From Candidatus Acidiferrum sp. (GTDB lineage: Bacteria; Vulcanimicrobiota; Vulcanimicrobiia; Vulcanimicrobiales; Vulcanimicrobiaceae), in the NCBI GenBank assembly GCA_035507095.1, contig DATJOM010000074.1:3941-67940 (forward strand): DNA of 64,000 nt. Reading direction: 5' to 3'. The notes below the pieces were generated by a model. It was not told the origin of the DNA. It ran no database searches and saw only the letters and a program-made list of their open reading frames with translations. How positions within the stretch are numbered: position 1 is the stretch's first letter; each line of letters opens with the position of its first letter. Below, in pieces: positions 17,497 through 50,326 of the stretch. The position numbers and the translations under genes were made by a program.

Positions 17497-17700
17497 AAGG
17501 TTTCTCCTTCTGGCCTCGGTTCGCGTGCCGTCATGGCGGTGCGATCCGTGTCGAGAGGCCATATACCACCAGCCGTCCGTGGCGGGCGTAGTAAAGTAGC
17601 GCCGCCCATACGGACAGCCGTCCGAGTATACCATGGCCCCGGGGGCGGGTCCAGCGGGCGAAGGGTCTTCACCGCTAAGGCTCTCGGGCGAAGATACCGA

Positions 17701-18717: not shown

Positions 18718-18880
18718 GTAGTGCCGTCGACGTGGTCCCGATACCAAGTAACATGACGACCCTGACGTTCAATGGGCGCGCCCCAGGGGAACCTTTCGCT
18801 TACCAAGTTGTGTCGCGCGCCATGGTTTGGGGGCCCCACGAAGTGGGGGGCGCTGAGCCTCGGGCGGAGCGCCTTTCCAA

Positions 18881-20401: not shown

Positions 20402-20404
20402 GCG

Positions 20405-21292: not shown

Positions 21293-21331
21293 ACCACCAG
21301 GTTATCGACCGGCCCAGAAGGCCGGTTTAGA

Positions 21332-22102: not shown

Positions 22103-22104
22103 GG

Positions 22105-24137: not shown

Positions 24138-24139
24138 GA

Positions 24140-26981: not shown

Positions 26982-26982
26982 T

Positions 26983-27753
26983 ATGCAGGCCGTGATTCTA
27001 GCCGGAGGCCTCGGTACCCGCATCTCCGAGGAAACGCACCTTCGCCCGAAACCGATGATCGAAATCGGTGGCGAACCCATTTTGTGGCATTTGATGAAGC
27101 TGTATTCGCACTACGGAATCAACGATTTCATCATCTGCCTCGGATACAAGGGCTACTTCATCAAAGAGTATTTCCATAACTACGCCCTTCACATGTCCGA
27201 TGTCACCATCGATCTGCGAGATAGTTCACTGACGGTCCACGAATCGACCGCGGAACCCTGGCGCATCACACTCGTCGATACCGGCGCCGAAACGCTGACG
27301 GGTGGCCGCCTTCGGCGTGTGCGCTCGTATCTGCAAGATGGTCCGTTTTGTTTTACGTACGGCGACGGCTTGAGCGATGTGAACATCGCCGAGCTGGTTG
27401 CGTACCATCGCAGCCAACGCCGCCTCGCAACGCTGACCGCGGTGCAACCACCGGGACGTTTCGGCGCAATCGTCCTTAACGCGGGCCGCGTCACGTCATT
27501 CCGGGAGAAGGCCGACGCCAGCGACGCCTGGATCAATGGCGGTTTCTTTGTGCTCGAGCCCGGCGTGATCGACTACATCCAGGGTGACGACACCGCGTGG
27601 GAAGCCCAGCCGCTCGAACGGCTGGCTGCCGAGGATCAACTCTCGGCATTTCAGCATCGCGGCTTCTGGCATCCGCTCGATACGCTGCGAGACAAAACGA
27701 TACTCGAGGCGCTTTGGGCAAGCGGCTCGCCGCCCTGGCGCCCCTCCGACTAG
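26983..27753 (+). CDS. rfbF: glucose-1-phosphate cytidylyltransferase
   Basis: MQAVILAGGLGTRISEETHLRPKPMIEIGGEPILWHLMKLYSHYGINDFIICLGYKGY, canonical RfbF. Its start codon is back-to-back with divergent rfbG (1-nt spacer). Confidence 0.92.
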   Translation: MQAVILAGGLGTRISEETHLRPKPMIEIGGEPILWHLMKLYSHYGINDFIICLGYKGYFIKEYFHNYALHMSDVTIDLRDSSLTVHESTAEPWRITLVDTGAETLTGGRLRRVRSYLQDGPFCFTYGDGLSDVNIAELVAYHRSQRRLATLTAVQPPGRFGAIVLNAGRVTSFREKADASDAWINGGFFVLEPGVIDYIQGDDTAWEAQPLERLAAEDQLSAFQHRGFWHPLDTLRDKTILEALWASGSPPWRPSD

Positions 27754-27769
27754 TGCCGATATATCAAGG

Positions 27770-30667
27770 GTGACCTCGCCGCACGCTGCGCCGATAGACG
27801 GCGTCAGCATCCTGATTACCTCGTACAACTACGCAAGCTATCTCCCGCGGGCGATCGCGAGCGCGCGCGCGCAAGAGGCCCCCAATCTCGAGATCGTCAT
27901 CGTCGACAATGCGTCGACCGACGCATCGTGGGATATAATTCAAGCTTCCGCAGCCGAAGACGCGCGAATCCGGCCGTTTCGTAACGATACGAACGTCGGC
28001 CCGCTCGGCAACCATATGCGCGCCGCCGAGCACGCCCGTCACGAGCGCCTCTTGTATCTGGCCGCCGACGACGTCTTCTTCCCCGGACATCTCACGACGT
28101 TGCTCGGCGCGCACGCGGCGCAACCCGACATCGATTATTTCTTCACGTCCTATGTAAAGATCGATGATGACGACCGGTTTCTCGCGTTCTTTGGCCATAC
28201 CGGGCACTTGCGGGCACCGTACGCAGGCGGTCGAAACGAATTCGCCGATCTGCTGACCTACGATTGCTACGCGTGCTTTCCCACGACGCTCTGCCGGCGT
28301 AGCGATCTCCTCGCGCATCCTTTCGGTGACGAGATCCTCGCAGCCGACCTTGACTACTATCTGCGCCTTGCATCCGAAGGCAAGCGCTTTGGTTTCATCA
28401 ATCGCGCGGGCATGGCGATCCGTCTCCACGAGAATGAGCTCTCCGGACACGAGCGTTACGTGACAACCGGGCGGCAACTCACCGATCATGTGCTGCTTCT
28501 CGAACGGCACCTCGTTCCCAGCAACAACCACCTCATCGCAGGGCGCGAAGACGGCATCCTTCGGCTGCTCAAAGCAAAGATCGACAATCTCGTCGCCTAT
28601 CCAGCGCGCTTTAACGAGCTTGCCGCGGACCTCGCACCGCGGATCAAAGTGATTGAAGAACGGCTTCTCGCTTCACGCGCGCGCACGCATCGCGGTGCGC
28701 TTTCCAATCCAACGGTCAGCGTCGTCCTGTTGTGCGACGACGACGTCCAGGCTTGCGTCGCGGCCGCACAGGCGCTGGCCGCGCAGGATTACGAACGCAA
28801 AGAGATCATCGCGGTCCATCGCGGTCACGTCGACACATCGAAGCTACTCGCGGGCGCGCTGCGCCACGTAAGCGCGAACATCATGGTCCAAGGTCCGGCC
28901 TATTCACAAGCCGTCTCGTGGAACGACGCGCTGCGGCTCTGTAACGGTGAGGTCGTCGTCTACGCGGATCGCTTGACGTCGTGGCAACCCGGCCACCTTC
29001 GGCGCCTTGCGGGACATTTCGAAAAAAACGACATTGACGTTGTGTTGGTCCGTGGGGACGCGCTGTTCACGCGCGGCGGCCTCGATGCAATACGTTTCGA
29101 CCACTTCTACGGCGGTGCGTTCGCCGAGGACGCCGCCGTCGGCGAAGGCGTTCCACTTGCAACCGTGGCACACCGTCGTTCGCTCGTCGACGAGGTCGGA
29201 GGGATTGAAGAACAGCTCCCAATGCTCGCAGAGTTCGATTTCGTCGCGCGTCTGGTTACCGGTCGCAAGATCGGCGTTGATACCGAGCTGACCGTCACGC
29301 TTCGCAAACCGCTCGAAACGCCGCATCCCGCGATTGCGAATCCGAATGCGTACCTTTCGGCACTACAGCAGCTCTTTAAGGCGAGGCAAATCGCCGGACC
29401 GATCGGCGAGCGACGCGCGCTGCACCTGCGGCGCGTGCAAGCGTCGCTCCAAGCCTTCGTTGCGAACAAGACGAACGACGCGGCGACCGCGTTCTTGCGC
29501 ACGGCGCGCGGTCTGGTCGAGCCGGCAACCCGGCACGAAGGTGACCGGCCGCGCATCCTCGTCATCGATGACCTCGTACCATACGACGAACTCGGGCGGG
29601 GGTATCCGCGGGCGCGCAAGCTGCTCGAGAGCCTGCGCGACGGCGGCTACGACGTGCTCTTCTATCCGCTGGTTACGCCAAAAGATACACCGCCACTCGA
29701 CTATGGCATCCCGGGCATCGAACCACTCTACGGCCGGGGCCCGGAGCTGCTCGCACTTACGCTCGCCGAGCTCTTGCCCACGCTCGACGCGCTGTGGGTC
29801 AGCCGCCCGCATAATATGAAGTCGGTGCTCGAATCGCTTGCGTCGCTGGGCATCACCGAGCGTCGCTGGGGCTTCATCTACGATGCCGAGGCGATCTATG
29901 TCGAGCGTCACGCCGTGCAGGCAGAACTCGCCGGCAGACCGATACCGAAAACCGAGTACGAAGCATATCTCACCGAAGAGCTGCGCCTCACCGACGCATG
30001 CGACGCTGTCTCCGTCGTCTCCGCAGCCGATCGCGCGACGTTCGGGCAACGCTTTAAGGGACCGATCGAGACGATCTCGTTTTCAAACGCGGCTGCGCCG
30101 ACGAACGCGCCCTTCGCGCAGCGCGACGGCGCGCTCTTCGTCGGTGCCGTCGAACCGGGCAGTCCGAACGAGGATTCCCTGCTGTGGTATTGCGAGCACG
30201 TTGCGCCGCGTGTCGCGGCGACGCTCGGCTCGCCCGTGCGACACGCCGGCGTCATGGCCTCCGAGCGCGTGCGCGCCTATTCGCCCGAACGCGTCACACT
30301 TCTCGGTCTCGTGCCCGACCTGCGACCCGTCTACGAGCGCGCGCGCATCTTCATCGCGCCGACGCGTTTCGCTGCGGGACTTCCGCAAAAAGTGTACGAG
30401 GCGGCGGCGCACGGCGTCCCCGTGATCGTCACGCCGCTGCTCGCTCGCCAACTCGGCTGGAAAGACGGCGAGGAGTTACTCGTTGCGGAGACACCCGACC
30501 AGTGGGTCGCGGCGATCGAGCGGCTTTATACCGACGCAGCGTTGTGGCAGCGGTTGCGCGAGCGGGCGCTCGAAGCCGTGCGCCGCAGCGTCGCACCCGA
30601 TGCGTTTTCGGCAAGCGTCCTTCGCGTCGTCAGCGAAGCGCTTTCGGCCAGAAAGGCCTCAGCCTAG
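27770..30667 (+). CDS. three-domain glycosyltransferase (GT2 - GT2-like - GT4/GT1-like)
   Basis: ORF 27584..30667 trimmed to the GTG at 27770. Domain 1: VSILITSYNYASYLPRAIASARAQ...IVIVDNASTD...AADD. Domain 2: VSVVLLCDDDVQACVAAAQALAAQDY...IIAV. C-terminal RILVIDD...GLPQKVYEAAAHGVPVIVT is a GT4-type segment. Confidence 0.8.
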   Translation: MTSPHAAPIDGVSILITSYNYASYLPRAIASARAQEAPNLEIVIVDNASTDASWDIIQASAAEDARIRPFRNDTNVGPLGNHMRAAEHARHERLLYLAADDVFFPGHLTTLLGAHAAQPDIDYFFTSYVKIDDDDRFLAFFGHTGHLRAPYAGGRNEFADLLTYDCYACFPTTLCRRSDLLAHPFGDEILAADLDYYLRLASEGKRFGFINRAGMAIRLHENELSGHERYVTTGRQLTDHVLLLERHLVPSNNHLIAGREDGILRLLKAKIDNLVAYPARFNELAADLAPRIKVIEERLLASRARTHRGALSNPTVSVVLLCDDDVQACVAAAQALAAQDYERKEIIAVHRGHVDTSKLLAGALRHVSANIMVQGPAYSQAVSWNDALRLCNGEVVVYADRLTSWQPGHLRRLAGHFEKNDIDVVLVRGDALFTRGGLDAIRFDHFYGGAFAEDAAVGEGVPLATVAHRRSLVDEVGGIEEQLPMLAEFDFVARLVTGRKIGVDTELTVTLRKPLETPHPAIANPNAYLSALQQLFKARQIAGPIGERRALHLRRVQASLQAFVANKTNDAATAFLRTARGLVEPATRHEGDRPRILVIDDLVPYDELGRGYPRARKLLESLRDGGYDVLFYPLVTPKDTPPLDYGIPGIEPLYGRGPELLALTLAELLPTLDALWVSRPHNMKSVLESLASLGITERRWGFIYDAEAIYVERHAVQAELAGRPIPKTEYEAYLTEELRLTDACDAVSVVSAADRATFGQRFKGPIETISFSNAAAPTNAPFAQRDGALFVGAVEPGSPNEDSLLWYCEHVAPRVAATLGSPVRHAGVMASERVRAYSPERVTLLGLVPDLRPVYERARIFIAPTRFAAGLPQKVYEAAAHGVPVIVTPLLARQLGWKDGEELLVAETPDQWVAAIERLYTDAALWQRLRERALEAVRRSVAPDAFSASVLRVVSEALSARKASA

Positions 30668-38315: not shown

Positions 38316-38693
38316 TCAGCGAGCGTCGTTGAGGATTGCGCCGTTCTGCTGGCGCCTGCCGATAACCGACCGCGCATACGCTTTCCAGCGCGAAATTAAC
38401 TGCAAGCGGCCACCCGACTCATCTTGAAAGCGCTGCAAGCGCTTGAGCTGCCATTCGCGGTACTCAAGAATGCGGCGCACACGCGTGGCGATCTCGTTGT
38501 CGAATTCGGCCGTCCGCTCGGCCTGCGCTGCCTCCCATGCGTTCATCACCGCATGACGTGCACGGCCCATGTCGGAGAGCAGGTGTTCGAAGGCCGTCCA
38601 GTCGCGTCGATCGATCAAGGGACCAAGCTCGCGACACTGGACCTCGAGTTCGGTAACGCCGGTTCGAACGTCTTCGAGTGCCGACCTAGCCAA
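38316..38693 (-). CDS. hypothetical helical protein in the FliT position downstream of fliS
   Basis: 125 aa, helical and charged sequence. 8-nt overlap with the fliS stop. Assignment by position only. Confidence 0.4.
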   Translation of the reverse strand: MARSALEDVRTGVTELEVQCRELGPLIDRRDWTAFEHLLSDMGRARHAVMNAWEAAQAERTAEFDNEIATRVRRILEYREWQLKRLQRFQDESGGRLQLISRWKAYARSVIGRRQQNGAILNDAR

Positions 38694-39144
38694 CGGCCGC
38701 GAATGTCGACGTCATACCGTCGCCTCCAGCAAGCCCCGTCTGTCCTCGCTTTTGCGCCTTGAACTGCGTCACGGCGACGTTCCAGGTGTCGCGGTATTCG
38801 CGCGCGTACCCGAGGATGCGCTCGACCCGCGTCGGGTCTTTGCGCATGTTCGCCATCACCAACTCGCGATGCCAGAAGCCATACACGCGCAGCAGATTCT
38901 CCGAGAGCTCGCCGCCAATTTCCATGTTCAGTGAGCTCATCAACACGGTGCAAGCACGCTGCCCACGTAACAGCGCCTTGTGGATGCCTTCGATGTCGTC
39001 GCGCTCGTTCACCAGTTTCTCGTGCGCCTGTTGCGTCGCAATTATCAGGACATCGAAGATCTTCACGATGAGATCCTCGGGCGCCGCAGTGAGAATCGAC
39101 GTCTCGAGATAGGTCTGCTGCTCGTTGTTCTTCCGCGTCGCCAT
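38686..39144 (-). CDS. fliS: flagellin-specific export chaperone FliS
   Basis: YLETSILTAAPEDLIVKIFDVLI...GELSENLLRVYGFWHRELVMAN, typical FliS four-helix pattern. Confidence 0.9.
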   Translation of the reverse strand: MATRKNNEQQTYLETSILTAAPEDLIVKIFDVLIIATQQAHEKLVNERDDIEGIHKALLRGQRACTVLMSSLNMEIGGELSENLLRVYGFWHRELVMANMRKDPTRVERILGYAREYRDTWNVAVTQFKAQKRGQTGLAGGDGMTSTFAAVG

Positions 39145-39146
39145 TA

Positions 39147-41147
39147 CTAGCTGCCCGATCCCGACGTGCTACTGGTAGTCGAGAATCCGAAGACCGACGC
39201 GAGTTCTTGCTGTTCGGCTTGAAGGCCCGCGATCGCGGTTTCACTCGCGACGAATCCCGTGCGCAGCGAGTTCGCCTGCGCGTTAGCTGCATCGGTAATC
39301 TGCGTCACCTGCTGCTGCAGGTTTGTAATCGTATCGTTGTTGCCGTTCTCGTCGTTCTGTATTAGCGAGACCGACGGTACCGTACCGACCGGACCCGCGT
39401 TGAGCAAGGTGGGTGCTCCGGTCACGGTTGCCAGGTACGAGCCCAACTGCGTGGTCAAGCTATTCGCGCCGACGAGTAATGCTTGCACGGCGCTCGGGTT
39501 CGCCTGCAGCGCCGCGAGGAATGAGTTCACATCGAGCGGCGCGAGCAGCCCGCTCGTTCCGTCAATGGTTTGCTGCTGCACGGGTGAATTGCCCGGGCCC
39601 TGATCGTCGATGCTCGTCGCTTCAACCGTCGCAAAGGAACTATTGAGCAACAAGCCGGCCTGCGAGAGGGAATTGTAGGTTGGGTTGTTGCCGAGGAATC
39701 CACCGACGATGTCTTCGAGTTGCGGAATAATCGTCGAGACCGACGGGTCGCCCCACAACACGCCGCCCGGTACCGACTGCGCGATCGAATTCGTGCCGGG
39801 TTGAATCGCGAGCACGATCGGCGGAGCCGTCGCATTGTTGATCTCGTTGACCGCGGCATTATAGACCGAGACGAAGTTTTGCACCGCCGACACCAGCAAC
39901 GAATTGTTCTGCGTCACATTCAACGTGAACGGCGTCGTGGTATTCCCGGAGATTGAAAGCGAAATGCCGGGGATCGCATTGGTAACCGTGTTCGAGTTAT
40001 TGTAGTAGGTGCTCGACGAGCCGTCAGGATTCTCGACCGTGATCGCCGACTGCTGACCAACCGTCGTCGTGGCGCCGCTCGCCGCCGTCAATCCGGCCGC
40101 GGCCAAGAAATTGCTCGTGTCGCCGGACGCGCCGAGCACGATGCTCTGCGGTCCGGAGTTCGTATTGGTCAACTCGATCTGCCCGGTGATCGCATTGAAG
40201 ACCGCGGTCACGCCGGCGGAGCTACTGTTGATCTCGTTCAGAATGTCGTTGAGATTCTGACCGCTGGTGACCTGAATCTTCACGCCGTTGATCGTGAAGG
40301 TTCCGGCCGTCACCGGCGTTACGAAGCCCGCGTCGTTGGTCGAGTTGAAGTCGGCATCCGGGTTGATGCCACCGACGTCCGCGGTGCCTTCGATGAACCC
40401 GCCGCTGCCGCTGTTAATCAACTGCGCGTTGCTCAACTGGAACACGCTCAGCAAATTGCCCTGGTCTTGCACGCTGCCGAGCGAGATCTGCTGATCGCTC
40501 GACGTGAATTCGACCTTGCCGTTCACCAGCGTCGCCAAGAACCCCGCGTCGGCTTGCGAGTCGACCTGTGAGGTAATGTTGTTCAGGATTTGGTTGAGCG
40601 ATTGCCCGTCGACGTTGTATGAGATCGACACGCCGTCAACCGTGACCGACCCGTCGCCATTCGTTCCGTTCGAGGGAACCACGCTCGCGTAAGAGTATGC
40701 GAGCGGTACGGTGTTCGACGCCTGACCGGCATACGGACCGCTCGTGAGCGTGTCGGTGATCGAATGGCCCGCGGTCGCGCTCGAAAGAATCGACGTGTTC
40801 GTGGCGGCCTTCACGCTCTCGATCGTGTACAGTCCCGGCGTTGCGCTCACGCCGGGAACGCCGGAAGCCGAAAGCGCCGAGCTGCTCGACGTCGCTTGAT
40901 ACGTGTCGAAGAGGTCGGGGTTCGAAAGATTCCCGAGCGCGTTCTGCACGCTGCTCAGCAAGTTGCTGATCTTGATCAGCTCGGCGTTTGCGTTGTTTAG
41001 CGTCGCGATCTGCGCGTTGAGCTGCGTCGTCGGCGCGAGGCTCAGCTGCGTCAGCTTTTCGATGATGGAATTATAGTCGATGCCCGAGACGATCCCCGGG
41101 AACGAGATCGGCGCAGCGTTGGTGCCGAGAGTACCGCCAGTTGACAC
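39147..41147 (-). CDS. fliD: flagellar filament cap protein (hook-associated protein 2)
   Basis: N-terminal ISFPGIVSGIDYNSIIEKLTQLSLAPTTQLNAQI and a C-terminal FliD_C-type coiled coil (...LRTGFVASETAIAGLQAEQQ). 666 aa. Confidence 0.9.
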   Translation of the reverse strand: MSTGGTLGTNAAPISFPGIVSGIDYNSIIEKLTQLSLAPTTQLNAQIATLNNANAELIKISNLLSSVQNALGNLSNPDLFDTYQATSSSSALSASGVPGVSATPGLYTIESVKAATNTSILSSATAGHSITDTLTSGPYAGQASNTVPLAYSYASVVPSNGTNGDGSVTVDGVSISYNVDGQSLNQILNNITSQVDSQADAGFLATLVNGKVEFTSSDQQISLGSVQDQGNLLSVFQLSNAQLINSGSGGFIEGTADVGGINPDADFNSTNDAGFVTPVTAGTFTINGVKIQVTSGQNLNDILNEINSSSAGVTAVFNAITGQIELTNTNSGPQSIVLGASGDTSNFLAAAGLTAASGATTTVGQQSAITVENPDGSSSTYYNNSNTVTNAIPGISLSISGNTTTPFTLNVTQNNSLLVSAVQNFVSVYNAAVNEINNATAPPIVLAIQPGTNSIAQSVPGGVLWGDPSVSTIIPQLEDIVGGFLGNNPTYNSLSQAGLLLNSSFATVEATSIDDQGPGNSPVQQQTIDGTSGLLAPLDVNSFLAALQANPSAVQALLVGANSLTTQLGSYLATVTGAPTLLNAGPVGTVPSVSLIQNDENGNNDTITNLQQQVTQITDAANAQANSLRTGFVASETAIAGLQAEQQELASVFGFSTTSSTSGSGS

Positions 41148-41155: not shown

Positions 41156-41551
41156 CTACGCTTTCTTGTCGAGAGTGACGCCGTCGATCTGATCGAAGAA
41201 TTCGGCCAAACCAATGAGCTCTTGCGGGGGAAATTGTGCGACCTCTTCACCTGTCTCCGGATTGGTGAAGACGGTCACGACGAGTTGGAGTTCGCTGACG
41301 TACTTGTAGGAAATCGCGAGCTGCGGCGAAGTAGCCGACGATCCGGACGTGCTTCCGACGTTGTAGAGTTTGGCAACCACCGATGCAATCGTCGAGGATT
41401 CGCCGGCTTGATGGGGAGGCGGTGCAGCGGCAGAGGAACTAGAAGAGGTCGCCGGCGCCTGTTGCGCTGCAGCAACCTCCGTTGTTTGGGGTGTTTGCGG
41501 CACCCCTTCGCCTTGACCGGTACCAGCCGCGGCGACGGTCTGAACGTCCAT
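41156..41551 (-). CDS. flaG: flagellar protein FlaG
   Basis: C-terminal LQLVVTVFTNPETGEEVAQFPPQELIGLAEFF matches the FlaG family pattern. Sits immediately upstream of fliD. Confidence 0.8.
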   Translation of the reverse strand: MDVQTVAAAGTGQGEGVPQTPQTTEVAAAQQAPATSSSSSAAAPPPHQAGESSTIASVVAKLYNVGSTSGSSATSPQLAISYKYVSELQLVVTVFTNPETGEEVAQFPPQELIGLAEFFDQIDGVTLDKKA

Positions 41552-41579: not shown

Positions 41580-41607
41580 TTTTCGACCTACACGGCCGCC
41601 TATTTTA
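41580..41607 (-). promoter_or_regulatory. sigma-28 (FliA/SigD)-like promoter candidate for flaG-fliD-fliS
   Basis: Minus strand TAAA-N16-GTCGAAAA (6 of 8 to GCCGATAA). Same 16-nt spacing as the fliC candidate. The leader then has three GGA motifs (cGGAagaagcgGGAgaaGGAtt) before the ATG. Confidence 0.4.
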
Positions 41608-43578
41608 GGCCCGGACCCCGGCCGCCTCGGCATAGGCGCCCAAAACCGTTTGGAGCGCCCGCAGCGGGTCGGCAATTTCGGCCGTCCGCTCGGCGATCTG
41701 GTGCCCGATCGCGGGGGCCCGCATCCAGGCCTGGCGCAGTGCCGTTGTCGCGCTTTCGAGCGAGGCAGGGTCAACCCCGCCCATAGCCTCCGGCCACAGC
41801 TGCGCGTAGGGCAGCGTCCGCGACATCACCGGGGGCACGCCGTGCGCCGCGGCGCGCGCCGCCCGCGAGGCGCCGTGGCCGGCCCAGGAAAGGTCGGCGT
41901 AGACCCGTGCACCCGCGTAGAACGCTGCCAGCTGCTCTGCCGTGAGCGCGTCTTCGGGAAGACAGACGAATTGGCTGCCCCCGATGCCAAGCAGCGCGTA
42001 ATAGTAATCAACCTCGACAACGGTCCCGACAAGGACGGCGGGCAGGCCGGCGGCCGCCAACGCGCGGGCTGCCAGAAACTGATTCCCGCGTGGATCGATG
42101 ATGCCATGGAGCAGGACGTATTCGTCGAGTCCGCTGATCGCGCCGATTGGATCGGTGGCCACCGGGCTCGCCGGTACACACGGGACCACACGCGACGCAC
42201 CGGTGAATGTGAAGAGCGCGCGAACGCGCGTTTCCTCTTCCGTGCTTGCGAAAATCACCGCGCGCGCCTGTTCCAGCAGGCGGCTTACCGCGCTCCGATC
42301 GTACGCCGGCGTCCCGCGCTCGTGTCCACCGCCCACGAGCAGCCGCCGCGCGATCAATCCGCGTTCGATTGACGCTTGCGCCATGTCATCGCGAACGCCG
42401 GTGAGCATCGTGCGAATCGCGCTCGAGCCCCAGAGTGCCTCGTGATCGAAATCATCCAAGAGCGGTGTGCTGACGACCGGCACGGCAAGGCGCTTCGCTT
42501 CTTCCAGCACAGGGCCGAATTGATGGGCGTGGCGATGGCCGAAGACGTGTATCAGATCGAAGCTCTCGGCCCGCGCTGCGGACGCGACACTGAGCTTCGC
42601 GTTGAAACCCTGTACGCAAAGCGCGTTGACCAGGTCGCGTGCCTGATCGACGTCGGCATCGGGCACGGTGAGTCCGTTGTCGCGGATCACGACGAGAATG
42701 TGGCCTTCCGAACCGCCGATGACCGGAGCGCCCACGAGGCGATTCGCGCGCAGGATCGGCTCACGCGATCGAACGCCGAAGCGGCGGATCTCGGGGCCGT
42801 CCTGCAGATCGAACGAACAGGCTACCGATGCAAAGAGTGGACGTGCGACGCCGACGGTTCGCGCGCTTTCACCGTTGTCATCCAAACTCAGCGAGGCTGC
42901 CGCGTCGGCACTGTGCGCGGGCGCGATCGAAACGTCGAACGCCGCGCGTGGCAGATCGCCGTACACCCCCAGGCCATACCAGGCGCGTGCGTGCTCGTTA
43001 CGTGCCGGAGTGCCAAGATCGGCATGCACGCTTGCCGCGATCCCAGCCAGCAATGACGCGCCGAGTCCGCCGTCAGCCGATCGGATTCCAACGCGCCGTC
43101 CCTTGGCAAAGCGCTGCGCGTAGACGTACGGTGCGGCGTCCGCCAGCACAACATCGACCGGTGCCGCACACAGGAAGCGCGACGCACGCGCCGCGGCAAA
43201 CGTTTCGCGCGCCTGCACGCTCTCGGTGAAGTAGCCGATTCGCTCCTCGATGATCCCACCGAGCAGCGCGTGCGAAAGGAGCCAGGGCTCAACGCGTTCC
43301 TCGATTTCAGGCAAGGTCTGTTCTTCGAGCGGCAGCCACGATGGCCAGATCAGCGGGCTCGATTCGCGAACGCTGATCATCGTGGGATCGATTTGTACGA
43401 AGGGAAGGAGCACGATCTCGCCGTCACGCTGAAATACGAGATCCATCCAGCCCTGTGGCCAATTGCAATACGACGGCTGCAGCCGCGCCGCGAGCAAATA
43501 CGGCGCACCGACGACGCGCGCAAATCGTCCAGGCTCGCTGAACGGCGCATAGCGCCCCATCTGCGAATGGCGTCTCAT
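41605..43578 (-). CDS. GT4/GT1-like glycosyltransferase with large N-terminal domain of unknown function
   Basis: ORF 41605..43677 trimmed to the ATG at 43578 (ATGA overlap with the upstream stop). C-terminal half shows a GT-B pattern (HVFGHRHAH..., ...AARAAAHGVPPVMS). Confidence 0.62.
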   Translation of the reverse strand: MRRHSQMGRYAPFSEPGRFARVVGAPYLLAARLQPSYCNWPQGWMDLVFQRDGEIVLLPFVQIDPTMISVRESSPLIWPSWLPLEEQTLPEIEERVEPWLLSHALLGGIIEERIGYFTESVQARETFAAARASRFLCAAPVDVVLADAAPYVYAQRFAKGRRVGIRSADGGLGASLLAGIAASVHADLGTPARNEHARAWYGLGVYGDLPRAAFDVSIAPAHSADAAASLSLDDNGESARTVGVARPLFASVACSFDLQDGPEIRRFGVRSREPILRANRLVGAPVIGGSEGHILVVIRDNGLTVPDADVDQARDLVNALCVQGFNAKLSVASAARAESFDLIHVFGHRHAHQFGPVLEEAKRLAVPVVSTPLLDDFDHEALWGSSAIRTMLTGVRDDMAQASIERGLIARRLLVGGGHERGTPAYDRSAVSRLLEQARAVIFASTEEETRVRALFTFTGASRVVPCVPASPVATDPIGAISGLDEYVLLHGIIDPRGNQFLAARALAAAGLPAVLVGTVVEVDYYYALLGIGGSQFVCLPEDALTAEQLAAFYAGARVYADLSWAGHGASRAARAAAHGVPPVMSRTLPYAQLWPEAMGGVDPASLESATTALRQAWMRAPAIGHQIAERTAEIADPLRALQTVLGAYAEAAGVRA

Positions 43579-46172
43579 TTCGCCGTGACTCCGAGCGCGC
43601 GTCGTAGCGCACTGGGGCTTCGATCGCGCAGCGTGCGCACGTCGATCCAACGCCGATCGCTCTGCTGCGCCATCCATGCCTGCTCGCTATCGTAATCGGT
43701 GATGTCGATGTCGGCACACTGCGCAGGCGCGATCTCCGCCTTCTCGAGAATGCGCTCGACGCGACCACCGATCGTCATCGCGTCCGGTTCGCCGAACGCA
43801 GCGATCGCGAGCGCGACGCGATCATCCAGTTTGAACGCAACGGCGAAGCGGCGCACGAACTGCGCCACTTCCGTCCACTCTGCCTCGTTACGGACGGCTA
43901 CCGCGAAGACCGCGCGCGCGTCTCCCAACGGGTCGGCCGGCGCGACCTCGACGGTTACGGCCTGCGACTCGCGGACAACCGGCAGCGGATGGTAATGTTC
44001 GGCCGTCTTGAACCCGCGCGCATGTGCCTGGTCGGCGCTGTAGCCCGCTGCGGGAAGCGATCCCGAAAATCCCCATTTCTTCGCAAAGCGTTCCCAATTC
44101 GCGTTCATCGTGGCCGAATAGTCGACGTTGTTTGCCACAAACGACCGGCTGCCGAAATGATGGATGAAGACATCGTTGCAGACGTAGATCAAATAGCCCG
44201 CAGCGCGCACGCGCATGCAGTAGTCATCGTCCTCGAAGTTCCCGATCGCGTAGCCTTCGTCGAGGCCTCCAATTTGCTCGAGTACCTCGCGGCTGATGCA
44301 CCAGCAGAATCCGATCGCCCGATCGGTGACGTAGCCGTTCCCCGCGTACGCGCGACGCCGTTCAAGTGCGAATGCTTGCATCTCGTTTTCGTCGCGATAA
44401 CCGGCTTCGGGCAACTGTTGATCGCCCGCTACCAAGTTGCTCCGCGGCGCGGAGATACCGAGGCCGGGGATACGTCGAAACGCATCGACCAGACTGTCGG
44501 CCCAACCCGGCGTTACTATGACGTCATTGTTCAAGAGGATGACGTACTTCCCGAGCGCGTGCGCGATCCCGTCGTTGTTGCCTCCGGCAAATCCGCGGTT
44601 CGTTTTGTTGTAGATAATCCGCACGTGCGGATCGTCGATCGTTGCCAACGCCTTAAGCGTCTCGGGCCCCGAACCGTTATCGACGACGATGACCTCGTAG
44701 GGCTCGGCGGTGTGCTGCCGGATCGACTCGAGCGCCTTCATCGTAAACTCGGGCGCGTTCCAGCTCAACGTGACGATCGAGAGCAGACCGCGCTCGAATG
44801 CCGGCCGGGAACGCAGGACGCGCTCGATCGCTTCGGGTGAACGATCGAGGACCTCGGGAAACGTGCTTGGCGCCAACCGCGCGAGCGAATGCGCAGCCAC
44901 GGTTCCGCGACCGAGCTGCAGCCCGCGCGTGAGGAAATCGACCGTGGCAGCGTCGAGCGAAGAGAAGTCGCCGAGCCTGAGATGTTGAGGGAACATGCGC
45001 AGGCGTAAGAGGACGCAACGCGCATCGCTGGTTGCCATCGGCTCGTGCGTCCCGCGCCGTACGCCGTCGGCGAAGGTTGCAGCCGCGCCATTTGTCGGCG
45101 CGGTAGAACGCGCGAGCAATTCGTCGAGCCAGCCTTCTCCGAGCTGCGTGTCTGCACGGACGAAGGCCACGAAGCGTTCGCCGCGCAGGTCCATGAGTTC
45201 GCGCGCACGCTCGACGGCGTCATTTGCGCTGCACCAGACGATTGCACCGACCGGCGAGCGATTGGCGCGAATGGCTTGCTCGAAGGTGGCGCGATCGAAG
45301 TCCGCGGGAACGCCATGGACGAGCACGTCGATCGGCAAGGTTTTCAAGAGCCCGAGCATCTCGCCGCCATTTCCCGAGCGACGCACGCTTTCGTAAACAC
45401 CGGCGTCGACAAATCGCCGCGCCGCATCAAACTCTACCTTGTTGTGCCAACGATCACCGAGTCGCTGCAGGTTCGGTTGCATGCGACGAAAGCGCTGCGT
45501 GCCGGACTGCGATTCGAAGTGAATCAGCGAGGCAGCGGGTTCGTAGAGCACCCGGAGCCCACGTTCGCGCACCTTCAGGCAAAAATCGACGTCCTCGTTG
45601 CCGTTCCAATAGCCTTCGTCGAGACCGCCTAATTCGAGGTACAGTTCGCGCGGCGTCGCAAGGCACGCCCCCGTTACAACTTGATAATCGCGCGCGACCT
45701 GCGCATCCTTACACGCGTCGTCGAGCTCGCTGTACCAGAAGTGAAATGGCTGCATCCCGATTGCGCTGTACGGCCACCAACGTATTGCCACGCCCGCGTG
45801 CTGAATTGCGCGATTTGGAAAGAGCAGCTTCGCCCCGACGATGCCGATACTCGGGTCCTCGAATCGACGCATGACCGGCGCGAGCCATTGACTGATGGGT
45901 TCGGTATCGTTATTGAGCAAGACGAGGATGCGGCCACGCGCCGCGCGCGCCCCCTGATTGTTCGCGCCCGCGAACCCGAGATTCGTCTCATTACGAATCG
46001 CGCGGATCCACGGAAATTGTGCGAGAACCTCTTGCGTGTGGTCGGTCGACGCGTTGTCGATTACGATCACTTCACCTTCACCGGCACCCTCGAGCGACGG
46101 GCGAAGCTTGCTCAGACAATTTCGCGTCAGGTCCGCCTTGTTGAAGACGGGAATGATGATCGAGTAGTCCAC
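43575..46172 (-). CDS. tandem GT2 glycosyltransferase (two family-2 catalytic domains)
   Basis: Domain 1: YSIIIPVFNKADLTRNCL...VIVIDNASTDHT...NLGFAGANNQGA...LLNNDTEP. Domain 2: LSIVTLSWNAPEFTMKAL...VIVVDNGSGPET...NRGFAGGNNDGI...LLNNDVIV. Confidence 0.85.
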   Translation of the reverse strand: MDYSIIIPVFNKADLTRNCLSKLRPSLEGAGEGEVIVIDNASTDHTQEVLAQFPWIRAIRNETNLGFAGANNQGARAARGRILVLLNNDTEPISQWLAPVMRRFEDPSIGIVGAKLLFPNRAIQHAGVAIRWWPYSAIGMQPFHFWYSELDDACKDAQVARDYQVVTGACLATPRELYLELGGLDEGYWNGNEDVDFCLKVRERGLRVLYEPAASLIHFESQSGTQRFRRMQPNLQRLGDRWHNKVEFDAARRFVDAGVYESVRRSGNGGEMLGLLKTLPIDVLVHGVPADFDRATFEQAIRANRSPVGAIVWCSANDAVERARELMDLRGERFVAFVRADTQLGEGWLDELLARSTAPTNGAAATFADGVRRGTHEPMATSDARCVLLRLRMFPQHLRLGDFSSLDAATVDFLTRGLQLGRGTVAAHSLARLAPSTFPEVLDRSPEAIERVLRSRPAFERGLLSIVTLSWNAPEFTMKALESIRQHTAEPYEVIVVDNGSGPETLKALATIDDPHVRIIYNKTNRGFAGGNNDGIAHALGKYVILLNNDVIVTPGWADSLVDAFRRIPGLGISAPRSNLVAGDQQLPEAGYRDENEMQAFALERRRAYAGNGYVTDRAIGFCWCISREVLEQIGGLDEGYAIGNFEDDDYCMRVRAAGYLIYVCNDVFIHHFGSRSFVANNVDYSATMNANWERFAKKWGFSGSLPAAGYSADQAHARGFKTAEHYHPLPVVRESQAVTVEVAPADPLGDARAVFAVAVRNEAEWTEVAQFVRRFAVAFKLDDRVALAIAAFGEPDAMTIGGRVERILEKAEIAPAQCADIDITDYDSEQAWMAQQSDRRWIDVRTLRDRSPSALRRALGVTAK

Positions 46173-46180
46173 CGGATGGG

Positions 46181-48046
46181 CTACTTCAACACGGCATCGG
46201 CAACGGCTGCCGCGTCGGCGAACCGTTCGTGACGAAGGTAGTAGAGCGAGAGCGCGACGGACGAGCGCACCGGATCGATTTCGCGGGCGCGAAGTAGTGA
46301 CGCCTCAACGCCGGCCGGCGAGGCCAAGAGTTCGAGCGCACCGGCACGCGTCATTAACATATCGAAATCGCTCGGATTGAGCGCAAGCGCCGTTTCGGTT
46401 GCTGCGAAGGCCGCCTCGGCCCGTTTCTGGTCGAGCAGCCGATGCGCTCGGTCCTTCCATCCCTCGAACGTCTGCGGTTCCTGACCGGCACGGAGTGCAT
46501 CGGCTTCACGCGCGCGCCCTTGCGCTTGTAAGAACCGCTCGAGCTGTTCCGCGGCCGCCGTGGAATCCGGATCGCATTCAACGGCAAGACGCAAAAAGTG
46601 TTCTTCCTTCCCGAAGCCGTAGCGTTCCGAGACGCCGGCCGCGCTAACCAGCAATTCGCAAGCCTCAGGTGGCTTCAGCCGTGGATACCACTTCTCCACG
46701 ATCTCGAGGGCTTCGACTGCACGTTTCATGCGCAGTAAGAAATTCACGAAGTGCAGCATCGCATGCGCGCTTTCGTGCGTGTCGAGCACGAGCTTATACG
46801 CATCGTGCGCTTCCGCGAAGCGTTTGAGTCGCTCGAGCGCCTTTGCCCGATTGATCATCAGGGGTTCGACGGTCGGCGCGTTTTTCAACCCTTTTTCGAA
46901 CCACTCGAGCGCCTTACCGTCATCGCCCTCGAGTGAGTAGCTCGAGCCCATCTCCGAATACGCCTTCCATACGTACACCTGGTCGTCAACGATGAACTGG
47001 TTTGCGGCGAACGCACCATCGTCGATCGCCTCGGCGAACGCTTTTCGAGCCTCCTCGTAGCGCGCTTGCGCGATCAACGTCTTGCCCAGCATCATGTGCG
47101 CGTTCGCGTAGTGCGCGCTCCGTCTGAGAGATTGGCGCGCCATTTCTTCACCCTTTACGGGATCCTTGAAATGGTCGCAATAGAGATCGCCAAGCAATGC
47201 GAGCCCGTTGGGCATAAATGCACGCGGCGTGTCTCCGACGAGCTCATACATCTTCAGGAGCGAACTCAGCGCCAGTTCGTAATCTTTGTTGAGGTAGGCC
47301 GTCGTGCCTAGGTTGTACCAGTGGTATGCATTCTCGGAATCCTTTTGCGTCGCGGCGAGCAAGATCTCGAGATTGCGTTGCCCTTTGTTGCGTTCTTCGA
47401 CGACCGAATTCACATATCCATGATGAATCAGCGTGATCGAGCTTCCCACGGCATCGACACTGGTCGCGGTCCCATCGAGGGCCGGATATTCGTGGATCGG
47501 TCCAAAGAATCGGATCCGATCGCTATTCGGGAAAATCCGAATGACGTGGTGTGACACGTCACCCGATCCGCGATAGTCGTCGGTCCGGTTAACGATGCGC
47601 GTGTAGAATGCATCGATGTATGCGGGCACATTCTTGAGCGCGAGCAGGGAGGGACGCGAGTCCTCGGTCAGTTCCTCGTCGGCGTCAATGAACAAGATCC
47701 ACCGCTTCGTTGCGGCTTCGATCGATTTGTTACGCGACCACGAGAAATCGTTGCGCCATGGATCCTCGATCACGGTTGCACCGTACGAGCGCGCGATCTC
47801 GATCGTGCGGTCGGTGGAACCCGTGTCGCAGACGATGACCTCGTCGACGTAATCGCGCACGCTGTTCAAGCACTGCGGCAAGAACTTCTCTTCGTTCTTG
47901 ACGATCATGCACAGGCTCACGCCGGCCGGCTTCTGCGGATACCCGGGTGGAGGCGGCTTAAGCGCCGGCAAGTGAGCGCTTCCTTGCTGCGCGGGCTGCA
48001 GCAGCGCCTGCGGCTTCGAACGCTTGGCACGGACGTGGATCGGCAT
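46181..48046 (-). CDS. GT2 glycosyltransferase fused to TPR repeats (GmaR-like architecture; putative flagellin glycosyltransferase)
   Basis: VSLCMIVKNEEKFLPQCLNSV...VIVCDTGSTDRT...FIDADEEL GT2 domain, followed by about 400 aa of TPR-like repeats. Immediately downstream of fliC. Confidence 0.82.
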   Translation of the reverse strand: MPIHVRAKRSKPQALLQPAQQGSAHLPALKPPPPGYPQKPAGVSLCMIVKNEEKFLPQCLNSVRDYVDEVIVCDTGSTDRTIEIARSYGATVIEDPWRNDFSWSRNKSIEAATKRWILFIDADEELTEDSRPSLLALKNVPAYIDAFYTRIVNRTDDYRGSGDVSHHVIRIFPNSDRIRFFGPIHEYPALDGTATSVDAVGSSITLIHHGYVNSVVEERNKGQRNLEILLAATQKDSENAYHWYNLGTTAYLNKDYELALSSLLKMYELVGDTPRAFMPNGLALLGDLYCDHFKDPVKGEEMARQSLRRSAHYANAHMMLGKTLIAQARYEEARKAFAEAIDDGAFAANQFIVDDQVYVWKAYSEMGSSYSLEGDDGKALEWFEKGLKNAPTVEPLMINRAKALERLKRFAEAHDAYKLVLDTHESAHAMLHFVNFLLRMKRAVEALEIVEKWYPRLKPPEACELLVSAAGVSERYGFGKEEHFLRLAVECDPDSTAAAEQLERFLQAQGRAREADALRAGQEPQTFEGWKDRAHRLLDQKRAEAAFAATETALALNPSDFDMLMTRAGALELLASPAGVEASLLRAREIDPVRSSVALSLYYLRHERFADAAAVADAVLK

Positions 48047-48072
48047 CCTAGTGGTTATCGGCAGAATGCAAC

Positions 48073-48143: not shown

Positions 48144-49418
48144 TTAACGGAACAGCGTGAGAACCGATTGCGCGTTCGCGTTCGACTGCGCCAAGACGGA
48201 CGTACCGACTTGGACGAGCAGTTGCAGCTTCGTGAACTCGGTCGTCGCTTGACCCACGTTGAGGTCGGCGATGTTCGATTCCGAGGCTTGCAGGTTCACC
48301 GCGGCCGTGTCGTCGTTCTGCTGGTCGATACCGAGCCGGACTACGACTGCACCAAGGTTGGCTTGCTGCGTGGTCAACGTCTGCAGCGCGATGTCGATCT
48401 GGCCGATCGCATCTTCCGCCGCAAGCGACGGGTTCTGCGCCGAGCTGACGGCGAGGTTGATGTTCGAGATGCGCAGCGTGTTCGTGTTGGTCGCTGCGAT
48501 ACCGAGCTGAATCACATCGCCTTCGTCCGCGCCCGATTGGAAGTTGAACGCCGGGGCGGTTGCGAAGTTCGACGGACCGACGTACTGCGAGATCTTGACG
48601 TACGCGCTCTGCCCGACGTCGCCGAGGGTCGGCGTGCTGAAGAACAGCGTAACGCCGTCGTTCGCGCCGGCACCGGCCGTACCGAGCACGAACTTGCCGG
48701 TCGTACCAAGCGAGATGAACGTGGTCGAGACCGTAGCCGTCGAGCTGATGAATTGCGTGACTTTCAGCTCCGGGGTCGCCGTGGTCGGGTTCGCCGTGTT
48801 GGCGATAACCTGCACTTCGACCGTTTCATCGGCAGTATTCGCCGACGTGTAGAAGCTGTTGTTCGCAACGCCGACGCTGGCGATCAGGAAGCCCGTCGAC
48901 GAGCCAATCGATTGCGCGCCGCTCGAGAGCAGCGCCGCGTTCGCCGTGATCGTGTAATATGCTTCCGCGCCGCCTTGGTCGCCCTGGTGGCTTCCGTTGA
49001 GGAGCGCCTGTCCGTTGAAGTTCGTGTTCTGCGCGATGCGATTGACTTCGAGCAGAAGCTGCGAAACTTCGGTTTGCAGGTTCACGCGATCGCTGGTCGA
49101 GTTGACGTCCGACGCTGCTTCGACCGCAAGGGTGCGGATGCGTTGCAGAATGTCGGTCTGTTGGGTCAACGCGCCGAGCGCGACCTGCGCGGCGTTATTA
49201 GCGTTCTGCACGTTTTGTGACGCTTGATTGAACGCTTCGTACTGCGAGGTAAGGTTGGTTGCAATAGCGTTGCCCGACGGATCATCCGCTGCGGTGTTAA
49301 TGCGCAGACCGGATGAAAGCTGGGTAACGACGTTCTGCAGTTGCTTTTGATTGTTGTCGAGGTTCAGCTGAACAGCATTCGACAGCAAGTTTGTGGCAAT
49401 GCTCAGGCCTGTAGCCAT
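48144..49418 (-). CDS. fliC: flagellin
   Basis: Conserved D0/D1 termini (MATGLSIATNLLSNAVQLNLDNNQKQLQNVVTQLSSGLRINTAADDPSG... and ...TTEFTKLQLLVQVGTSVLAQSNANAQSVLTLFR). Ser/Thr/Ala-rich variable centre. Confidence 0.96.
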   Translation of the reverse strand: MATGLSIATNLLSNAVQLNLDNNQKQLQNVVTQLSSGLRINTAADDPSGNAIATNLTSQYEAFNQASQNVQNANNAAQVALGALTQQTDILQRIRTLAVEAASDVNSTSDRVNLQTEVSQLLLEVNRIAQNTNFNGQALLNGSHQGDQGGAEAYYTITANAALLSSGAQSIGSSTGFLIASVGVANNSFYTSANTADETVEVQVIANTANPTTATPELKVTQFISSTATVSTTFISLGTTGKFVLGTAGAGANDGVTLFFSTPTLGDVGQSAYVKISQYVGPSNFATAPAFNFQSGADEGDVIQLGIAATNTNTLRISNINLAVSSAQNPSLAAEDAIGQIDIALQTLTTQQANLGAVVVRLGIDQQNDDTAAVNLQASESNIADLNVGQATTEFTKLQLLVQVGTSVLAQSNANAQSVLTLFR

Positions 49419-49488
49419 TTTTCCTCCATGATGTGGTGCTCAGAGGCACCGATACGCTAGCCTATGGGGGAAGATTTCCTTTCTCCCC
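49419..49488 (-). promoter_or_regulatory. fliC 5' leader with two candidate CsrA binding sites
   Basis: Minus strand hairpin GGGGA-gaaaGGAaatct-TCCCC (49466-49488) presents GGA in its loop. The Shine-Dalgarno AUGGAGGAAAA-AUG (GGAGG at 49423-49427) supplies a second GGA. Confidence 0.5.
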
Positions 49489-49498: not shown

Positions 49499-49525
49499 TA
49501 TCGGCCCCACTTTTACCGGACTTTA
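49499..49525 (-). promoter_or_regulatory. sigma-28 (FliA/SigD)-type promoter of fliC
   Basis: Minus strand TAAA (49525-49522) - N16 - GCCGATA(C) (49505-49499), close to the consensus TAAA-N15-GCCGATAA. Lies between the csrA stop and fliC. Confidence 0.6.
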
Positions 49526-49545: not shown

Positions 49546-49782
49546 TTACTTGCGCGGCTTCAGGGTGGCCTTTTCGGCCTTGCCGGCAGCGGCGGGGGCG
49601 GCCCCCAGCGCCTCCTGGTTGGCGCGGCGGATCTCTTCGTAGACCTCGGACCGGTGAACCGGCACGGCGCGCGGAGCTTCAATCCCGAGCTTCACTTGGT
49701 CGCGATCGACCGCGACGATCACAATGCGAACGTCGTCACCAATCATAATCGATTGATTGATCTTACGGCTTAGAACCAGCAT
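49546..49782 (-). CDS. csrA: carbon storage regulator CsrA (FliW-partner type with C-terminal extension)
   Basis: [51 protein letters not shown], plus an approximately 25-aa tail. AAGGAGG Shine-Dalgarno. Confidence 0.95.
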
Positions 49783-49826
49783 CTGCGAAGGCCCTCCTTG
49801 GCGATTAGAACGGCCCTTCGGCAGGG

Positions 49827-50303
49827 TTAAGCGCTCTTACTGCTCGCCGGTACCTTGGACGGGCGTTTGCGCGGGATCGGTTCGCGCGACGAGTAGCTCG
49901 AGCCGTCGAGCATGATCTGACGTGCCTTCTTGGTACGCAGATTGATAACGACCGGAGCCATGAGGTTGATCGTCATCTCCTCCGCGTTCGGGGTCACAAC
50001 CACGACGCAGAGCGTGGCAAAATCACCGGCCTCGCGGATCTCAAGTGACGTGAACGCATAGGCTGGAAGCTTCGGATCGTAGTCTTCGAAGACCAGCCAC
50101 GGATCGATCGATGGAAGGGCGACGGAGTGATCGTCGAGGCTCTGCAGCCACACGAAGCTGGGATGGCTCTCCAGATTGAGCGGAAGCCAGTTACGCAGCG
50201 AAGGAAAACCCGGGAGGCCCCATGGGAACTCCACGACTTCGCTCGGTGTGAACGAGCACGAGCCAAAGCGGGGGAGTTCGACGGTGATCGCTGTTTCTTC
50301 CAT
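49827..50303 (-). CDS. fliW: flagellar assembly factor FliW
   Basis: [17 protein letters not shown]...[11 protein letters not shown]...ALPSIDPW pattern. ATG at 50303 preferred (GGAG 6 nt upstream); the ORF maximum is 50324. Confidence 0.9.
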
Positions 50304-50326
50304 ATATGACTCCGCTAGCTGCATGA

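Follow-up and report, generated by a model that had tools for sequence, protein, structure and literature searches.

The stretch analysed here, called the window, comprises 64,000 nucleotides (nt) of contig DATJOM010000074.1 (assembly GCA_035507095.1, Candidatus Acidiferrum sp., assigned to the Vulcanimicrobiaceae in GTDB) and has a G+C content of 60–65%. On its minus strand, genes were found in the order flgK, flgL, fliW, csrA, fliC, GT2-TPR, tandem GT2, ORF3, flaG, fliD, and fliS, placing three large genes with glycosyltransferase (GT) features between the flagellin gene and flaG-fliD. By homology and synteny, these three genes probably form an island for the O-glycosylation of flagellin in a member of the Eremiobacterota, and most likely equip the protein of the flagellar filament with a short chain of sugars. 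The presumed acceptor is flagellin itself (fliC, 48144..49418, minus strand, 424 aa; Pfam Flagellin_N E 1e-34, Flagellin_C E 6e-13), whose central region (residues 146–335) contains 24% Ser plus Thr. Gene 1 (46181..48046, minus strand, 621 aa) encodes a GT2 protein with tetratricopeptide repeats (TPR) that matches Pfam Glycos_transf_2 (E 1e-24) and several TPR families. Gene 2 (43575..46172, minus strand, 865 aa) encodes a tandem-GT2 protein with two Pfam Glycos_transf_2 stretches (E 1e-50) and has a GTG start 9 nt past the GT2-TPR stop. Gene 3, open reading frame 3 (ORF3, 41605..43578, minus strand, 657 aa), belongs to a family without description and combines an N-terminal beta module, a methyltransferase-like Rossmann domain, and a GT-B domain; its ATG overlaps the tandem-GT2 TGA (cgaaATGAgac, a 4-nt ATGA overlap). 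In a first-pass annotation of the window, made from the sequence alone, the same three-gene island had been described, and its gene order, coordinates, and sizes all match the recomputed ORFs.

The GT2-TPR protein carries a single GT2 domain (Pfam PF00535, residues 44–162), and TPR_2 (E 2e-19), TPR_1, TPR_16, and other TPR families span residues ~220–580, C-terminal to the catalytic domain. Its best PDB sequence match was the GmaR catalytic domain from Listeria (E 1.4e-30, with ~45–50% identity as judged by eye from the printed alignment), so that the comparison with GmaR drawn in the first-pass annotation was right at the sequence level for this domain. At E<=1e-3, only the 204-aa catalytic-domain chain of GmaR was matched in the PDB, and no GmaR TPR, linker, or anti-repressor chain. 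The next matches were SunS (E 6e-25) and a related Glyco_trans_2-like chain (7msk), and the NCBIfam SunS family scored the protein at 100 bits, which is under its cutoff. Both the nucleotide-binding motif CDTGSTD (residue 73) and the DxD motif DADE (residue 121) are kept. GmaR has been shown experimentally to be a flagellin O-N-acetylglucosamine (O-GlcNAc) transferase, with a TPR region proposed to recognise flagellin (PMC9638930), and the combination of GT2 and TPR serves in Clostridium islands as diagnostic of flagellin glycosyltransferases (PMC13317340). The protein was classified as a GmaR/SunS-type protein glycosyltransferase and is presumed to be the initiating flagellin O-glycosyltransferase, with transfer to Ser/Thr of flagellin suggested by homology and by the gene position after fliC. 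Translation likely starts at the ATG at 48046, and two relatives show in-frame conservation of ~40 N-terminal residues (MPIHVR...LKPPPPGY.QKPAGVSLCMIV). A later start (42–46 codons downstream, as chosen by gene callers in relatives) was rejected because the upstream ATG and the N-terminus are conserved, and also because the downstream position reads GTC, which is no start codon, in one relative.

The tandem-GT2 protein contains two complete GT-A domains at residues ~1–230 and ~460–690. The first keeps the motifs DNAS, NND, and EDVD (residues 39/87/193), and the second keeps DNGS, NND, and EDDD (residues 498/548/647). With the catalytic motifs of both domains intact, the protein is presumed to act as the elongating transferase(s). 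PDB matches were chondroitin synthase and polypeptide N-acetylgalactosaminyltransferases (ppGalNAc-transferases), and resemblance to EpsD, TuaG, and rhamnosyltransferases was also found; the second domain resembles the rhamnosyltransferase family TIGR01556 (82 bits, under cutoff). About 220 residues between the domains and ~170 C-terminal residues are without family assignment. Within this linker (residues ~285–440), the segment FVAFVRADTQLGEGWLDELL looks by eye like a third, degenerate GT-A core. The homologue of the protein in one related locus (L030; related loci are numbered with the prefix L) gave a faint GT2 signal only.

Direct searches with ORF3 returned no Pfam match at E<=10 and none in NCBIfam, and a PDB sequence search, performed with the single sequence and with a profile, returned no significant match. 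The full-length AlphaFold2 model (21 homologues) reached a predicted local distance difference test score (pLDDT) of 87 and a predicted template modelling score (pTM) of 0.88, and residues ~290–657 were modelled as a GT-B fold of two Rossmann domains. The top Foldseek matches of the protein were GT4 enzymes, including sucrose-phosphate synthase (6kih, E 4e-12), MshA, BshA, and PimA, with E-values ranging from 4e-12 to 1e-8 over residues ~290–657. Residues 1–290 were modelled separately (pLDDT 87), and the top Foldseek matches of this part were nearly all class I methyltransferases, at weak scores (best E 2e-3, template modelling scores 0.28–0.41) and including RumA-like proteins that bear an N-terminal beta domain. 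The protein had been described as GT4-like with a large unknown N-terminal domain. "GT4-like" holds at the fold level and via the family profile (see below) and fails by direct sequence search; the N-terminus is large as stated, and "unknown" gives way to a module rich in beta structure together with a Rossmann fold that is weakly methyltransferase-like and degenerate (~1–275).

For delineation of the family, the ORF3 profile was searched against 1.8 billion cluster representatives. This yielded 142 proteins at E<=1e-30, and among the 150 best matches listed most are 640–680 aa long and match end to end. The family is thus much larger than the first homologue search suggested, with more than 100 ORF3-type sequence clusters lacking a database annotation. 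All homologues stem from metagenomes or metagenome-assembled genomes, and the named ones are Candidatus Aquilonibacter or Eremiobacteraeota. The profile also reaches multi-domain proteins carrying Pfam Glycos_transf_1 (E 1e-28 to 1e-33), and since these are true members of that family, the GT-B domain of ORF3 is truly GT4-derived.

Residue counts were based on 136 aligned family members, with GT4 relatives aligned to the same profile. In this profile, the GT4 relatives read ...PSWxE(G/L)xPLxxxEAAxxG, ...GG(D/P)..., and ...PRKNQ. Within the ORF3 family, G (68 of 136), P (30), or S (16) takes the place of the first Glu of the EX7E motif (position 567), 103 members have R instead of the second (position 575), the Gly-Gly loop after beta-1 has become D-A-D (D309 in 133/136, D311 in 123/136), and the Lys of the phosphate-binding RK pair is G, C, or S. 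Nearly invariant are R299, D309, D311, D341, H344, D397, H491, R572, and G580. In the N-terminal part, motif I is degenerate (SADGGLG here) and variable across the family, with the acidic residue D187 present in 87 of 136 members; a working methyltransferase in ORF3 was rejected as lacking support, given this variability of motif I. In the distant homologue P0184, the methyltransferase motif I (VLDLNPGAG) is present together with a partial EX7E motif. P0184 is one of three tandem paralogues of ~690 aa with the architecture of ORF3 that lie on a 6.2-kb contig without flagellar genes (L032) and retain Pfam GT4 signatures, and this type is probably what the ORF3 family derives from, an ancestor with ordinary enzymatic properties.

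As EX7E, the Gly-Gly loop, and the RK Lys are lost in essentially all 136 members, ORF3 is not countable as a normal glycosyltransferase. The first-pass annotation had counted at least four GT catalytic domains; only three keep canonical motifs (one in GT2-TPR, two in tandem GT2), and by motif content the count is corrected to three canonical transferase domains and one remodelled GT-B domain. Judged from its sequence, this fourth component is not a standard glycosyltransferase; either its chemistry as an enzyme is altered, or it serves as a pseudoenzyme partner. An even chance is given to ORF3 assisting the tandem GT2 or the glycosylated flagellin without catalysis, as a partner or specificity factor, a smaller one to an enzymatic role in which a terminal substituent is added by non-canonical chemistry, and a slight one to a normal fourth glycosyltransferase, the least likely of the three. 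It is tentatively proposed that ORF3 represents a new family, widespread in Eremiobacterota, in which a conserved Asp/His/Arg pocket serves a new reaction on the flagellin glycan (e.g., with a non-sugar or non-nucleotide-activated group) or the protein acts as an obligatory flagellin-presenting pseudoenzyme.

The alternative that all four domains are active, with ORF3 as a working GT4-type enzyme adding a fourth sugar to give a flagellin tetrasaccharide or longer glycan, draws on the confident GT-B fold with its best matches in GT4, on the reach of the profile to true GT4 proteins, on residues common to ORF3 and GT4 relatives (R497, D341/H344, G580), and on the strong constraint on the cleft residues. 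It was considered unlikely, as both EX7E glutamates are replaced (G/P/S at 567, mostly R at 575), the Gly-Gly loop reads D-A-D, the RK Lys is G, C, or S, and the Pfam GT4 models fail on ORF3 even at the permissive threshold given above.

To place the island in its lineage, one genome per GTDB species was scanned with an alignment of closer homologues, and 24 ORF3 loci were detected, all of them Eremiobacterota/Vulcanimicrobiota including Candidatus Velthaea (28% identity); three are labelled otherwise. These three (L006, L015, and L018, labelled Candidatus Acidiferrales, Candidatus Acidoferrum, and Alphaproteobacteria) carry an Eremiobacterota-type locus with full synteny and an ORF3 at 60–70% identity, and the contigs are probably mis-binned in the public records. 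Gene order was compared by tblastn of the window proteins against 31 fetched loci. The order flgL, fliW, (csrA), fliC, GT2-TPR, tandem GT2, ORF3, flaG, fliD, fliS was found in nearly all 31, and the cassette is syntenic in ~30 loci, over which ORF3 identity falls from 80% to 24–28%. The recurrence of the same order in ~30 Eremiobacterota loci, which answers the synteny comparison suggested in the first-pass annotation, means that the arrangement is not due to chance. GT2-TPR immediately follows fliC in ~28 of ~30 loci, and in ~28 of ~30 the tandem-GT2/ORF3 pair lies strictly between GT2-TPR and flaG-fliD, on the same strand and with tiny gaps. ORF3 is directly 3' of tandem GT2 in every informative locus, and the 4-nt overlap of the two genes is seen again in L004, L030, L031, and L033. 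ORF3 evolves fastest of the cassette (in L024, identities are 61% for fliC, 48% for GT2-TPR, 54% for tandem GT2, and 39% for ORF3).

Rearranged loci were also found. In two divergent lineages, L029 and L031, the tandem-GT2/ORF3 pair is shifted as a unit beyond the neighbouring operon and still lies within ~6 kb of fliD-fliS, and in L031 GT2-TPR is immediately upstream of flaG-fliD. Such a rearrangement is expected if initiation on flagellin is the specific task of gene 1 and elongation that of genes 2 and 3, as a module that can be separated from it. L030 has two tandem flagellin genes (L030 2664–5377) before the GT2-TPR gene. A mosaic of identities was observed in L028 (CAWFYV010000005.1), with 82–88% from flgL to GT2-TPR, 67% for tandem GT2, 38% for ORF3, and 57% for fliD, which points to recombination with a breakpoint within the island or to an assembly that is a chimera.

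Transcription signals were searched around fliC and within the island. A sigma-28 (FliA/SigD)-type promoter-like site (TAAA-N16-GCCGATA, 49499..49525, minus strand) was the single pattern match in the window, with 0.1 expected by chance; it sits 80–107 nt upstream of the fliC ATG and would function as the fliC promoter. The hairpin reported earlier downstream of fliC was recovered: two hairpins follow the stop codon, the strong one at 48097–48072 (minus strand) being a GC-rich terminator or attenuator with a poor T-run in the clade of the window, and the 100-nt spacer between fliC and GT2-TPR folds at -48.6 kcal/mol (z = -3.6). The 24-nt core of the hairpin is identical in eight loci, in which the coding regions are only 62–91% identical, and L013 shows a compensatory G-C to A-T change. 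A strong GC hairpin is present 3' of fliC in all lineages, and in distant lineages the hairpins are unrelated and have proper T-runs. Eight nt before the GT2-TPR ATG lies a GCCGATAA box (48055..48062, minus strand) that resembles a sigma-28 -10 element and is conserved within the clade. As it has no matching -35 TAAA element, its promoter function is uncertain. Transcripts from the fliC promoter may read through in part, and transcription may also start internally at this box in the manner of sigma-28.

Upstream of fliC lie fliW (50324–49827) and csrA (49782–49546), a control pair for flagellin translation (49546..50324, minus strand; identified by Pfam FliW and, for CsrA, by its translation and by the CsrA annotation at syntenic loci). 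The csrA gene (78 aa) is located between fliW and fliC, and the fliC 5' leader (49419–49498) holds GGA motifs, one of them within the ribosome-binding site. A FliW-CsrA-flagellin partner-switch is known from Bacillus subtilis, and the GGA motifs and the position of csrA would fit a similar switch here.

Downstream of ORF3, after a gap of 53 nt with a good ribosome-binding site and without a predicted terminator, follow flaG (41156..41551, minus strand, 131 aa; Pfam FlaG E 2e-4, just under cutoff, with its position kept in relatives), the filament cap gene fliD (39147..41147, minus strand, 666 aa; Pfam FliD_N and FliD_C), and the gene of the flagellin export chaperone FliS (38686..39144, minus strand, 152 aa; Pfam FliS E 4e-25). 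A 125-aa ORF directly 3' of fliS (38316–38693, minus strand) had no family match; relatives carry an ORF of 111–128 aa at the same position, and the product may be FliT-like or another flagellar accessory protein. The flagellar genes of the window include those of the L- and P-ring proteins FlgH and FlgI, and given these rings the host appears to possess an outer membrane. Convergent on fliS, and beside it in almost all related loci, is a three-gene operon (35171–38309, plus strand) that encodes an AAA_22 ATPase resembling a PEP-CTERM-system ATPase (TIGR03015, 124 bits, under cutoff), a 479-aa protein with a DUF11-type repeat, and a 262-aa weakly GT2-like protein. This operon may contribute to the same surface-glycan system, or it may be a module for secretion or extracellular polysaccharide that is unrelated to it.

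A candidate sugar-donor cluster was identified at 17700..30667, ~14–30 kb from the island, with cys genes and another operon in between. By Pfam, it encodes RmlB-like and RmlA proteins, TylF-type and CmcI-type (rhamnosyl) O-methyltransferases, and two sugar C-methyltransferases, along with an RmlC-like epimerase, a reductase/epimerase, a second pair of nucleotidyltransferase and dehydratase, and a 1027-aa GT2+GT1 protein. The part from 21332 to 27753 is unusually rich in methyl chemistry. Both C-methyltransferases are of the Methyltransf_14 type (24685–26037 and 22105–23274), the TylF-type enzyme is encoded at 19601–20401, and the CmcI-type enzyme (21332–22660) is fused to an N-terminal extension of ~230 aa without family; a 295-aa protein (20405–21292) bears a faint 2OG-Fe(II) oxygenase signature. 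The 1027-aa ORF (27584–31686, plus-strand region) has two GT2 stretches and a C-terminal GT1/GT4 part and resembles a PEP-CTERM-system glycosyltransferase (under cutoff), and an overlapping or following ORF of 340–500 aa had no family match.

In the related loci, the distant relative L030 carries a nucleotidyltransferase, a 4,6-dehydratase, a C-methyltransferase, and a 3,5-epimerase directly after fliS (16830–20544), and L031 has a C-methyltransferase and a nucleotidyltransferase just past ORF3. The link between the cluster and flagellin is inferred from proximity together with these two loci, and their gene neighbourhoods modestly favour 6-deoxyhexoses, methylated or C-branched, as the sugars of flagellin. 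The cluster is followed by cysD, cysNC, and tauE, which adjoin in most relatives too, and no sulfotransferase was found in the Pfam-scanned window ORFs. For want of this enzyme, the idea of a sulfated flagellin glycan was dropped despite the neighbouring cys genes. Of the deoxyhexose, methyl, and sulfate machinery previously named as a plausible donor source, the deoxyhexose and methyl parts have some comparative support (L030), and the sulfate part, which has position alone in its favour, is not supported. Among the ~65 larger window ORFs scanned with Pfam, no Maf gene and no genes for nonulosonic acids (Pse/Leg/Neu) were detected, as had been reported for Maf and pseudaminic/legionaminic acid genes.

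The proposal of a flagellin glycosylation island made in the first-pass annotation is retained as regards glycosyltransferase genes in the flagellin region, which are placed within the late flagellar operon phylum-wide, and is not supported as regards a fourth catalytic domain. Several points weigh against a flagellin glycosylation island of the composition given above. The strong, conserved hairpin parts fliC from the GT genes, and a sigma-70 scan returned fewer sites than chance with nothing useful inside the island and no convincing promoter for the GT genes; given both, co-regulation with the flagellar genes is assumed. In L033, the most divergent locus and the sole such case, an amino-acid permease gene, and not flaG, comes after the tandem-GT2/ORF3 pair. 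No NCBIfam match of the island proteins reaches its curated cutoff, flagellin is absent from the one Eremiobacterota strain in culture (PMC9758169), and the donor sugars and acceptor sites are guesses. The conserved, rebuilt pocket of ORF3 also fits a real enzyme activity of another kind.

A second alternative is that tandem GT2 and ORF3, perhaps all three proteins, build an envelope or extracellular polysaccharide and that flagellin is not the substrate. The likeness of tandem GT2 to chondroitin synthase, EpsD, TuaG, and rhamnosyltransferases would suit such a role, as would the PEP-CTERM-type ATPase homologue and the GT2-like protein of the conserved neighbouring operon, which the pair adjoins in L029 and L031. 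The pair of L033, not followed by flagellar genes, and the likely ancestor type L032, which lies in a non-flagellar glycosyltransferase cluster, point the same way. However, a Pfam scan of the three proteins, which covers Pfam families and is not a transmembrane prediction, detected no membrane, polymerase, flippase, or polyprenyl-phosphate transferase family, the pair is held between a GmaR-type gene and flaG-fliD in all but about two of the ~30 loci, and soluble multi-domain GT2 proteins are established as elongators of flagellin glycans in Clostridioides difficile (PMC5207246). This alternative is accordingly regarded as improbable. That GT2-TPR is chiefly a regulator, whose helical C-terminal half sequesters a flagellar repressor with glycosylation as a secondary function, is very improbable: architecture and length are GmaR-like (GT, TPR, and more helices; 621 vs 637 aa; PMC9638930), but among PDB matches at E<=1e-3 the similarity to GmaR is limited to the catalytic domain, and the enzyme motifs of GT2-TPR are intact.

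Under the preferred reading of a flagellin O-glycosylation island, glycosylation would take place in the cytoplasm before flagellin export. In a first step, suggested by homology, GT2-TPR would bind flagellin by its TPRs and, using a nucleotide sugar as donor, place the first sugar on Ser/Thr residues of the central FliC region, which is exposed at the surface. In a second step, tandem GT2 would add further sugars with both of its GT-A domains, probably (methylated) 6-deoxyhexoses supplied by the rml and C-methyl-sugar genes. The third and least certain step would involve ORF3, translationally coupled to tandem GT2, as the descendant of a methyltransferase-like/GT4 fusion in which the nucleotide-sugar site has been swapped for D309, D311, H344, D397, H491, R572, and R575. 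The genes are probably expressed with late flagellar transcription, by read-through of the fliC hairpin, taken here as weak, or from the internal GCCGATAA box, and FliW-CsrA would control the translation of flagellin.

Flagellin glycosylation affects filament assembly, motility, surface properties, and immune recognition, and detailed studies of it exist for a few pathogens and Firmicutes. The cassette described here would be a multi-enzyme version that does not involve sialic acids and does not vary by strain, being fixed throughout a phylum of soil and peat that is almost uncultured; this phylum-wide fixation suggests a structural role of the glycan there. ORF3 offers a clean natural example of a glycosyltransferase fold that was repurposed, with an obvious partner enzyme and likely substrate. 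If a new reaction or an obligatory pseudoenzyme function of ORF3 holds true, a new class of components would be added to bacterial protein O-glycosylation. A family now labelled "hypothetical" gains a functional context for annotation.

GmaR of Listeria monocytogenes, which doubles as the MogR anti-repressor, adds a single GlcNAc and is not known to have elongating partner enzymes, and gmaR is not known to be inserted between fliC and fliD in such a manner. GT2-TPR shares with it the N-terminal GT2 domain with DxD motif, the TPRs after the catalytic domain, and a similar length, but has no detectable similarity to the linker/anti-repressor domain of GmaR (residues ~400–637). With the islands of Geobacillus and Clostridium, the cassette has in common glycosyltransferase and sugar-pathway genes in the flagellin region and a GT2+TPR transferase; those islands are strain-variable, horizontally acquired, and often based on Maf/pseudaminic acid (PMC5109656, PMC13317340). 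In contrast, the Eremiobacterota cassette is vertically conserved phylum-wide, and the window holds no Maf or nonulosonic acid genes among the ORFs scanned.

GtfB, the partner of GtfA in the glycosylation of serine-rich adhesins, has a GT-B fold without catalytic residues. GlfM, as cited in PMC13317340 (bioRxiv 10.1101/2023.12.03.569772), forms a ternary complex with Maf-2 and flagellin. In both systems, engaging the protein substrate requires an accessory protein whose gene neighbours that of the enzyme. Comparable to these accessory partners, ORF3 is a GT-B protein without catalytic hallmarks that is translationally coupled to a transferase, a likeness of features. It differs from them in that its partner is of the GT-A and not the GT-B type and in its strongly conserved polar pocket, with which it may still be an enzyme.

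By analogy, the closest functional parallel of the island is the type B system of C. difficile, in which fliC is followed by three glycosyltransferase genes (CDR20291_0241-0243: GT1, GT2, and GT3). Together, their products build a glycan from GlcNAc, two methylated rhamnoses, and one more sugar, with initiation by the first enzyme and both rhamnoses attached by the second (PMC5207246). In that system the rml genes are distant, and GT and downstream modification genes were found by reverse-transcription PCR to be co-transcribed across their junctions (PMC5207246). Shared features are the three genes after fliC, the two-domain second enzyme, nearby rml and O-methyltransferase genes, and a methyltransferase-like domain in the cassette, which here is degenerate and part of the third protein and there belongs to the second. 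In C. difficile, all three enzymes are Pfam PF00535 proteins, whereas the third protein here is a GT4-derived GT-B protein without a Pfam match; the island also lies in another phylum with an apparent outer membrane and is known from its genes alone. The system itself is of a known kind, and its interest lies mostly in the ORF3 family with its rebuilt site and in the uncultured phylum that carries it.

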